From the NCBI GenBank assembly GCA_028534125.1, contig CM052816.1, forward strand, positions 30,754,001 to 30,818,000: a stretch of DNA of 64,000 nucleotides, read 5' to 3'. Position numbers and translations under genes: made by a program. The stretch's first letter is position 1. Every line of letters begins with the position of its first letter. Shown here piece after piece: positions 27,730-38,739 of the stretch. Source of the stretch: Lama glama. Its lineage: Eukaryota. Below the pieces are notes generated by a model that saw nothing but the letters and a program-made list of their open reading frames with translations, searched no databases and was not told the origin of the DNA.

Positions 27730-27953
27730 TCGAGATTTATAGATGCTGACAGGTATATACAGAATTGATAAACAAGTTTATACTGTGTAGCATAGGCAAA
27801 TATATTCAAGATCTTGTAGCTCACAGTGAAAAAGAATATGAAAATGAATATATATATATATTCATGTATGACTGAAAAATTGTGTCATACACTAGAAATT
27901 GACATAACATTGTAAACTGACTATAACTCAATTAAAAAAAAAAAACGAAAGAA
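27730..27953 (+). mobile_element. Young 5'-truncated L1 3' end with poly(A) and TSD
   Basis: Perfect 11 bp TSD AGAAACCTCTG at 27719-27729 and 27954-27964; tail GAAATTGACATAACATTGTAAACTGACTATAACTCAATT followed by A-rich sequence. Confidence 0.92.
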
Positions 27954-29165
27954 AGAAACCTCTGGGTCACACAACTGGTTCACCGGTTTAGTGTTTGAGA
28001 GAAAGAAACAATCTCTTTGGGTTGATTTTATTTTTCCATGCGATAGAGTATCTTAGACTTCCTCATAAATCTATCAACCTTGCCCCTTCTTTAAGGAGTA
28101 TGTCTTTTAAAATGACAAAACTGTGTCTTCAACACCTTTAACTGGCTTAACCATGTTTGAAACAGGGTCTCAGGTTACTACTATGAAAATGGAAAGGAAG
28201 TTACAGACTGTGGTGGGAATTTCTATTAAGTTAGATCCTTCTTGAGCTGGTAAAGCACAAGAAAAAAAAAATAAGGAGTAATAGTGCCAGTCATTCATCA
28301 CTTTAGAGACATATTTTAAAATATCCATGAAAGTCTACACGGTTCAGATATTATTCTCATTTTAACAATATTATGCCTCTGTAGACCTCATAATGGAAAT
28401 AAATATTTGCAATGAAAGCTCATTTTGTACAGCACAAAACAATTAGATTTTTTAAATATTCTGTCTTTATGTCACTTCTGCCTTGCCCTGGTGAGTGACA
28501 GGGATTACATTGGTAACATAGGGCATACTTGAATAATGAAATTTTCCATCAGTTTTCTTTAAAAACGTAGCATGAACTGCAACTACAGAATAATTGTGTG
28601 CATGGCAAGTGATCTTTAAAATCATTTTCCAAGGCTTTCGGCAGAAACTTTTCACTTTTGATTAATACTCTTTCCTGTTTTCTGGTTCAGAATAGTGCTT
28701 CCTAGAGCTACAAATTCAGTTTATGGAGTGCCTCTGACCTGCACTCCGCTGGATAAAAATAAGTGTCAGTCCAATCAGACCCAAAGATCTGTTTCTTCAG
28801 CAGCTTCGGGTTTTCATGGACAATGCAGGGGCTCTGTAAAGTTTCATCCTGTATGCGTACACAAAGTGCCAGCAAAGAGAGTTAAAATAACATTTTTAAT
28901 ATCTATTGTATTTCCTCTAATCTCATCCATCATATGATTTTGGGTGAAGTACATATAACAAGAGCTCAAAAGTTCACCCCAAGTTTTTCACAAAGCAGAA
29001 CACAAAGCAAGTTCATTCTAAAGGCCTGTGGATTTATACTCATTTGGATAACGCTTCACAGTTATTTCTTAGATTTAAGTCACATCAAAAATCACCCTTT
29101 ATCTTCTCTCCTTTATTCCCCTCCTTAACCTCTTCTTGCCATTTCTGTACTAGTATTAAAAAACA

Positions 29166-29428
29166 CAGTGGACTGTATCTCTGTGAAAAACACAATTTTG
29201 CCTTTTTCTAATCCTGTTTGAACAAGCTGGAAGTTTAATTAGCTTTCCAACCAACCAAATTTCTGCATTTGAGTCTTAACCATATTTAACTGTGGCTTCA
29301 AAGAAACTATTGATTCTGATGAAGTGGGTTTGGATCAAGTTGATTGTTTTTAAAAAAAGTTTGATTTTTGTGATTTTTTGTAAAAGTTATAGTAGCAAAC
29401 ATTTGGTTTTGTACAGACATTATTTCCA
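29166..29428 (+). pseudogene. H2AZ1: Inserted fragment of the histone H2A.Z (H2AZ1/H2AFZ) mRNA 3' UTR; no CDS, no poly(A)
   Basis: CAGTGGACTGTATCTCTGTGAAAAACACAATTTTGCCTTTTT...GGAAGTTTAATTAGCTTTCCAACCAACCAAATTTCTGCATT...AAACATTTGGTTTTGTACAGACATTATTTCCA is colinear with the mammalian H2AZ1 3'UTR as I recall it; flanked by 34 bp direct repeats. Confidence 0.85.
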
Positions 29429-29974
29429 TGCTTTTTTGCCATTTCTGTGCTAGTATTAAAAAGCACAGTTAGAACCAAAAGCCTCCAGGTCATTAAAGAC
29501 AGTCATCAATATTGACAACACTTTGTCCTCATATTCAAAGAGCACCCATGACAAGACTTGAAGTCAGAAAGAGTGAAGTTTGTCATTTCTTTAAACCCAC
29601 TACTTATATTCAATATCCTCACTTCTTTCCCTATGCATATGCCACTTTATGCTGCCCTGCCACCCATGCGTAACAATGCACACAATTCTTTTTTGGGGAG
29701 CTGAGGTAAGGGGAAAAAATTGGAGAGATAGGAGTGGACAATCTGGGAGACACACTGTAGAATAGTTTCAAAACTTAAAACACATCATGGGACAAAAATT
29801 GTCTAGAAATACAAGACAATGTCAGTTTATCCCTAACCCTGCTACAGATGAATAGAAAATGTTCTTGAAAACAACAGTGAATGAATAAAACACTGTTTTT
29901 CAATATCCTGCAAGGGATTCAACACTCTTGGAAAAGTAGACAAGCTGCAAGGAATAATGGCAACAGGAAAACTT

Positions 29975-37779: not shown

Positions 37780-38739
37780 CTCTTGCACTTTTAATTATTT
37801 ATATTAATCATCTTTGAGGCACATGGAAGAGTTTTTAGTGAAAAGTGTTCTGCAACATATGTGATTCTAAAGTGCTACTAAATTGCCCATAGAAAAATGC
37901 AGTTTTGTTTGTAAGCATTCCAAAAGAAGTACTGAATTACCTAGAAATGTATTATGAAATCCACAAGTTACTGCAGTCAGGATAGTGTTGAGAGATGAGC
38001 TACATAGATATTTAACAGTTGGAATACAGGAGCTATTGCAGAGGCTAAAGAAACAGAGATTGTTAAGTCTGGAGATTGTTAAGGAGAGAATGGTCACTTC
38101 CTGTTCTCCATCTTTTCTGAGAACAGGACCAAAGAAAATCAACTTACACTAAAACGGTTATATTAAAAATATACAAAGGTATCTGGGTAGTGAGCATTGT
38201 TCAACAGTGAAATGATTCAGGGTACAGACTCTTCTTATTTACAAGCTTATAAAAAGTAAATGGTTTTGGTTCAACGTGGAGAAGTGGTGATGAAAGCTGA
38301 TCTCTGATGGTTCAATTCAAGGTTCATTAAAAGAAGACAACAGCTTACATCAACTTTTGAAGAAATTATGTATCTCTTCAAAATAATTTGCAAATTGAAT
38401 ATGAGTGATAACAAGAGACTGACAGGTATCTCAGACTGACAGGTATCTCAAGCCTACAAAGGGATATTTTTTGTCCAACATACTTTAATGAATAAAGGCG
38501 AAATTTATGAACTCATGATTTGCTAAGTGTGAAATTTTGGAAAGCTCTAAAAATGTATTCTAAATTAAAAGATACATTTAAGGGAGTAAATTTGCAAATG
38601 TCACATTACATATTATGGAAAGCATCTATATTTCATATAATATTTGAAGTACTTTCAAAGTTTGAGTGTGGCAGACTGTTACAAATAGAATAAATGCTAT
38701 TAAAAAATATATTCAGTAGTTAGAAGAACTTTAAAAAAG

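Follow-up and report, generated by a model that had tools for sequence, protein, structure and literature searches.

Tail-less, 3'-truncated and templated insertions have already been described and are common. Classical processed pseudogenes made by L1 carry poly(A) after the polyadenylation signal and are bounded by a short target duplication starting at TT/AAAA. Among human mobile-element insertions, 15.7% were scored as non-canonical, with 66% of those being without a tail (PMC12350158). The tailless retropseudogenes of PMC5322556 are copies of cellular RNA that have lost at least 10 nt at the 3' end and carry no A-tail; 5'- and 3'-truncated mRNA forms are numerous among them, their duplication starts at TT/WAAAAWW, and the RNA end is complementary to the target. 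Class 2 templated insertions (PMC5110952) are described as RNA-derived patches of 73–414 bp at breaks. Non-classical, endonuclease-independent L1 insertions (PMC1920257) consist of L1 sequence without a tail, can capture pieces of cellular RNA, and are accompanied by loss, not duplication, of target DNA. In the non-canonical L1 and pseudogene insertions of PMC11702581 a reverse-transcribed insert lies beside a fold-back copy of target DNA, and genes with high expression are over-represented among the donors. As to break repair, 3'-overhang breaks give rise to tandem duplications, which under TMEJ come close to full length (PMC8355091); a stem of 2 bp is enough for Pol theta to extend a stem-loop (PMC11292364), and fold-back insertions of 5–34 bp occur at breaks (PMC11724301).

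The locus analysed here lies in a window of 64,000 nucleotides (the whole stretch of DNA that was analysed). Its features are collated below.

29136 to 29169, forward strand: left target copy, 34 bp (37 bp if counted from 29133), from repeat comparison in the window and a genome pattern search
29156 to 29169, forward strand: TT/AAAA motif and 12-nt A-rich repeat end; this would be the target duplication if the insertion were an ordinary L1 insertion
29166 to 29169, forward strand: CAGT microhomology at the left junction, from alignment of target and donor
29166 to 29428, forward strand: H2A.Z.1 3'UTR fragment, 263 bp, no poly(A), from genome match and alignment to the donor
29346 to 29389, forward strand: T-rich tract of the insert in which indels relative to the gene are clustered, with later slippage likely, from alignment to the gene
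29429 to 29436, forward strand: 8-nt filler TGCTTTTT, the last 1 to 4 T of which may be the repeat's own, from the inverted match to 29458–29465
29436 to 29469, forward strand: right target copy, from repeat comparison and a genome pattern search

The two target copies are 300 bp apart and identical at 32 of 34 positions, so that the coordinates and the two mismatches given in the original prediction hold. The repeat can be extended to 37 nt (from 29133 and 29433) at 92% identity, whereby one more mismatch comes in. It is the only pair of 34-mers with at most two mismatches within 5 kb of each other in the 64-kb window, and a pattern spanning both copies gave two matches in the 2.35-Gb genome, both at this locus (reversed control: none). 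TTAAAA was found inside the repeat, 22–25 nt from its start, where an L1 nick would fall at 29157/29158; the repeat itself starts at TTCTT/TTGCC and not at TT/WAAAAWW. The duplication had been called longer than a classical one, with the motif internal, and this non-canonical form was verified. TTAAAA is present in 5.5% of random 34-mers from the window. Each flank is single-copy, its one genome match being itself, which rules out the flanks as interspersed repeats able to reveal an empty site. No host gene was recognised, as none of the 38 open reading frames scanned (38 of the 39 listed) matched Pfam, a scan that short exons would escape, and Rfam gave no match in the window. Elsewhere in the window, an L1-like 3' end with an A-tail lies at 27740–27945, and a perfect 17-bp tandem duplication at 38416–38450. 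The L1 end is of the camelid type, which makes a South American camelid the probable host.

The insert is in sense orientation and runs from 72 nt after the H2A.Z.1 stop codon to 17 nt before AATAAA. When it was searched against its own genome, all 16 candidates matched; the best non-self match (C2, a scaffold other than the chromosome-scale one that carries the insert; 88%, query 7–269, E 1.2e-90) is an intron-containing locus with GT-AG-bounded exons whose translation is H2A.Z. Exons 3 and 4 of this locus are identical to solved H2A.Z chains, exon 3 scoring 71.5 bits with H2A.Z chains versus 70.1 bits with H2A.V chains. Its residues T14, S38 and V127 are those of H2A.Z.1. The expectation that a host-genome search would return the H2AZ1 last exon was thus borne out, as was the reading of the roughly 260 bp between the repeats as H2AZ1 3'UTR stopping just before AATAAA. 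The insert ends without an A-run, confirming that a poly(A) tail is missing, and the donor itself continues to AATAAA. The 3' end of the donor is a 500-N gap in the assembly (L002:999–1498), and six tiny contigs (L004, L005, L011–L014) hold haplotype variants of this end, with a C/A difference just beyond the end point of the insert.

Identity of the insert is 88% to the gene and 70–79% to full-span H2AZ1 copies. It had been proposed that diagnostic substitutions relative to the gene and its copies would name the donor, and they point to the gene: when the slippage tract (29346–29389) is left out, 10 of the 13 differences from the gene are private to the insert. On these alignments the source is the H2A.Z.1 gene and not another H2AZ1 copy. 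Another retrocopy as DNA donor was rejected, because only 3 of the 13 differences are shared with other copies, at most two of them with any single copy. A search of the window for further H2AZ1 remnants of a longer retrocopy gave none that was convincing.

Divergence of the insert from the gene is about 7–11%: 17 of 258 sites differ in the pairwise alignment (6.6%, interval 3.9–10.3%, plus five gaps), and 30 of 263 in the multiple alignment. At the mammalian neutral rate, these values put the insertion at tens of millions of years. Between the two copies of the repeat, 2 of 34 positions differ, versus 4.5 expected if they are as old as the insert (P=0.16). Between 0.87 and 0.97 of the words of 28800–29800 were present in 19 of the 24 runs listed (four organism labels, seven studies), a listing that is ranked by content and so favours insert holders, and in which one run may be the assembly source. 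Since the insert and the second repeat make up 30% of this interval, the 19 runs carry the filled allele. The locus is real, old and single-copy, and the insertion is very likely a neutral, functionless scar.

As to RNA or DNA as the donor, the fragment lies wholly within the last exon and spans no exon junction, so that any case for an RNA origin is indirect. Six other independent H2AZ1 copies were found at seven loci of the same genome, several of them spliced. On a 146-nt query the alignments of two further copies reach positions 125 and 132, and that of the window insert position 99; the poly(A) site would accordingly lie about 33–37 nt past the end of the insert. An mRNA-derived donor is favoured, on the indirect grounds of the six other copies and of an end near the poly(A) site. 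The original prediction considered RNA and DNA undecidable; the missing exon junction on which this rested stands, and these two observations shift the balance towards mRNA. The argument is weakened by ascertainment, as conserved UTRs are the most easily recognised donors. The letters that follow in the donor, TCCACT, are the reverse complement of AGTGGA at the left junction (one of three such 6-nt sites along the donor stretch). This inverted match fits copying from antisense DNA, a template that cDNA supplies as well.

Two of the other copies are instructive. L008 (G000:C12) is a full-length, classical H2AZ1 retrocopy with a 15-bp duplication starting AAAA, an AATAAA and an A-rich remnant. 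L003:1501–1939 (G000:C3) is spliced, 5'-truncated and tail-less. It is bounded on either side by a 7-bp repeat whose first 4 nt agree with one allele of the donor, a feature of tail-less retropseudogenes, and the copy ends within 1–5 nt of the end of the window insert. A truncation point common to many copies was considered and discarded: matches ending at query 98–101 reflect alignment drop-off for L027 and probably for L009. L027 continues to the poly(A) site, and only L003 keeps a truncation point close to that of the window insert. The L003 copy adjoins an exon of a rhodopsin-family GPCR, and an LTR-like element of about 760 bp (L003:722–1485; 4-bp flanking repeat with one mismatch) lies 16 bp past its end. 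L006 and L007 (G000:C983469) are one and the same H2AZ1 retrocopy, interrupted by about 940 bp of inserted sequence; this retrocopy occurs twice, the two occurrences being inverted relative to each other and separated by about 130 kb.

At the left junction CAGT is common to target and donor, as the original prediction had it; alignment verified this, and chance would give such a match in about 0.5–2% of cases. The 8 nt between the insert and the right repeat, which are absent from the earlier reading, are the exact reverse complement (8 of 8 nt) of 29458–29465, where the A-rich end of the right repeat begins, and the TT/AAAA motif is exactly where the filler stops. Of 63,800 window positions, 200 have a perfect inverted partner of 8 bp no more than 40 nt away, as do 3 of 216 T-run 8-mers, the filler itself included; a local-alignment null gave 1.3%, and the overall chance of the match is put at 0.3–1.4%. 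Because the filler matches the target's own A-rich end in inverted form, it points, suggestively, to fold-back synthesis on that end. When the filler is taken together with the continuation of the donor, a candidate fold-back alignment of 12 of 15 positions with a 3-nt gap results. Assuming the G of the right copy, 173 of 21,101 null stretches score as high; with the left copy unchanged, 18% do.

Compared with the described systems, the window insert resembles tail-less retropseudogenes, class 2 insertions and non-classical L1 insertions, and it fails a defining feature of each. It differs from a classical processed pseudogene both in its 3' end (17 nt short of AATAAA, no A-run) and in its duplication, which is 34–37 bp long with TT/AAAA 22–25 nt inside. 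Mechanistic likeness to tail-less retropseudogenes (PMC2912911) extends to the lost 3' end of what is probably a cellular RNA copy and the absence of an A-tail. The filter used in PMC5322556 takes duplications of 8–35 nt at most 15 nt from the end of the element; the window insert passes with 34 bp and a 7-nt gap, and the 37-bp reading would exceed it. In contrast to the retropseudogenes described there, its repeat does not start at TT/WAAAAWW, its RNA end shows no complementarity to the start of the duplication (the likeness of the donor continuation to that start is not merged at the junction), and an inverted, target-derived filler is present. With class 2 insertions, as portrayed in PMC5110952, it shares a distant template, the missing tail, microhomology with extra nucleotides and a reading as break repair, and 263 bp falls within their size range. 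Those insertions are given there without target duplication, as against 34–37 bp here, and as polymorphic with an empty allele, of which the 19 best-holding runs listed, all with the filled allele, give no sign.

Extra junction nucleotides were reported in 15 of 21 non-classical L1 insertions (PMC1920257) and are likewise found here, together with a captured piece of probably cellular RNA and no tail; the window insert is H2AZ1 UTR with a duplicated target and contains no L1 sequence. The cases of PMC11702581 share the fold-back copy beside reverse-transcribed sequence, but are described as target-primed, with the inversion at the reciprocal end, and as somatic and experimental. TMEJ fold-back insertions (PMC11292364, PMC11724301) resemble the filler in being short inverted copies of a break end, and 3'-overhang tandem duplications (PMC8355091) resemble the repeat in being of overhang size; unlike the window insert, neither is described in these excerpts with an mRNA-derived patch. 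A narrow literature search, which is weak evidence of absence, found nothing relevant on the locus itself.

The reading that we prefer, to which we give an even chance, is a single old insertion in which a staggered break was patched with an H2AZ1 mRNA-derived copy and the target was duplicated by fill-in. Two nicks on opposite strands, 34–37 nt apart, would have produced long 3' overhangs. At the right end, the tip would have turned back onto the T-run within its overhang, been extended by 8 nt, perhaps 12, and then switched to H2AZ1 mRNA just upstream of AATAAA. Of this mRNA, 263 nt would have been reverse-transcribed, either by Pol theta or by L1 ORF2p acting in trans. Pol theta is capable of reverse transcription. 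CAGT at the left end would have paired with this cDNA and so started second-strand synthesis, and fill-in of both overhangs would have given the duplicated target. The opposite direction, in which the left end primes on existing cDNA, folds back and re-anneals upstream, would give the same product and is counted in the same reading. The duplication, the donor match, the missing tail, CAGT and the inverted filler seen at the locus are what these postulated break and synthesis steps would leave behind, and the reading is supported by a genome-unique repeat, single-copy flanks, the gene as donor, the rarity of the inverted match at the filler, the TCCACT/AGTGGA match and the indirect signs of an RNA donor. 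Precedents exist for each step: overhang-derived duplications (PMC8355091), stem-loop extension (PMC11292364), fold-back insertions (PMC11724301) and RNA-derived patches (PMC5110952). Several observations weigh against it. The filler is a post hoc finding, no longer than 8 nt and in part a T-run; it fits the right copy and not the left (one G/A difference). The 12-of-15 fold-back requires a later G-to-A change and a loss of 3 nt, and without this loss the right junction has no microhomology. The internal TTAAAA suits an L1 nick equally, and the class 2 insertions reported in PMC5110952 come without target duplication. The microhomology-mediated template switch first proposed for the locus is supported in part: the microhomology was verified and the inverted filler adds support, while Pol theta, MMBIR and L1 ORF2p are all candidates for the machinery and synthesis may have run in either direction.

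That TTAAAA is the starting point of a real, if minority, alternative, an aberrant target-primed L1 insertion. Here the nick would lie at 29157/29158 and the 12-nt A-rich end would be the true target duplication; ORF2p would have copied 22–25 nt of target DNA, folded back and jumped to an internal point of H2AZ1 mRNA, the 5' end being joined via CAGT. A perfect TT/AAAA lies exactly 12 nt before the left junction, 12 nt is a typical duplication length (12–18 bp in PMC11702581), and the filler terminates exactly at the motif. According to the same source, truncated L1 products typically show 5' microhomology of 4 nt, and local inversions and local templated pieces (three cases each) occurred among 99 L1 and 235 pseudogene insertions. 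The local inversions published there, however, lie at the reciprocal (5') end, whereas the filler is at the 3' side of the mRNA. Extra steps are also needed to duplicate the 22–25 nt upstream of the nick, 5.5% of random 34-mers contain the motif, and fold-back template is another explanation of the A-run. The canonical look of the left half (TT/AAAA, 12 nt, CAGT) would also be expected of an ordinary 5'-truncated retrocopy (A-tail, 12-bp duplication) whose tail region was later replaced by local repair copying 22–25 nt of left flank. The 2 of 34 repeat differences allow such a younger duplication, and non-canonical mobile insertions may change after integration (PMC12350158). Two events would nevertheless be required, no trace of AATAAA or an A-tail is left, and a simple deletion could not create the duplicated upstream flank; the older copy L008 retains its AATAAA, A-rich remnant and 15-bp duplication. 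We consider this remodelling distinctly improbable. Two further variants were discarded: internal priming based on the resemblance between donor end and repeat start, which 18% of random stretches reach, and twin priming, for which, by inspection, no orientation places the T-run beside a duplication ending at the nick.

A genomic H2AZ1 donor used by DNA-templated serial switching of the MMBIR/FoSTeS type is improbable. A broken, CAGT-ended strand would have invaded the H2AZ1 locus and been extended over 263 nt before folding back on its own junction and annealing again upstream. The fragment's lack of an exon junction agrees with this, and TCCACT/AGTGGA suits top-strand synthesis, which requires an antisense DNA template; distant genomic templated insertions occur in yeast (PMC11724301), and a genomic source is not excluded for human TSIs in PMC5110952. 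Nothing in such switching would nevertheless direct it to the 3'UTR of a gene that has six other retrocopies and make it stop short of the poly(A) site, and cDNA gives the same antisense template. An assembly artefact or chance repeat is scarcely credible: fragmentation of the assembly and a gap in the donor gene at the same UTR speak for it, but the insert is 7–11% diverged from any source, the two copies of the repeat are not identical, and 0.87–0.97 of the words of the region are present in 19 of the 24 runs listed.

A single neutral event changes little, and the finding would gain weight only if a survey showed a class. If the repair reading is true, overhang fill-in duplication, fold-back synthesis and RNA-derived patching, known separately from cell experiments, would be combined in one mammalian germline locus. 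It is doubtful that the locus is the fossil of a distinct germline route made up of fold-back priming, mRNA capture and fill-in of long 3' overhangs. Were this so, "duplication-with-mRNA-patch" insertions would be missed by screens for retrocopies and for class 2 insertions, and entry into abundant mRNAs would be favoured within their last 40 nt or so; L003, a second tail-less H2AZ1 copy, ends within 1–5 nt of the window insert. The insertion could be used as a presence/absence lineage marker.
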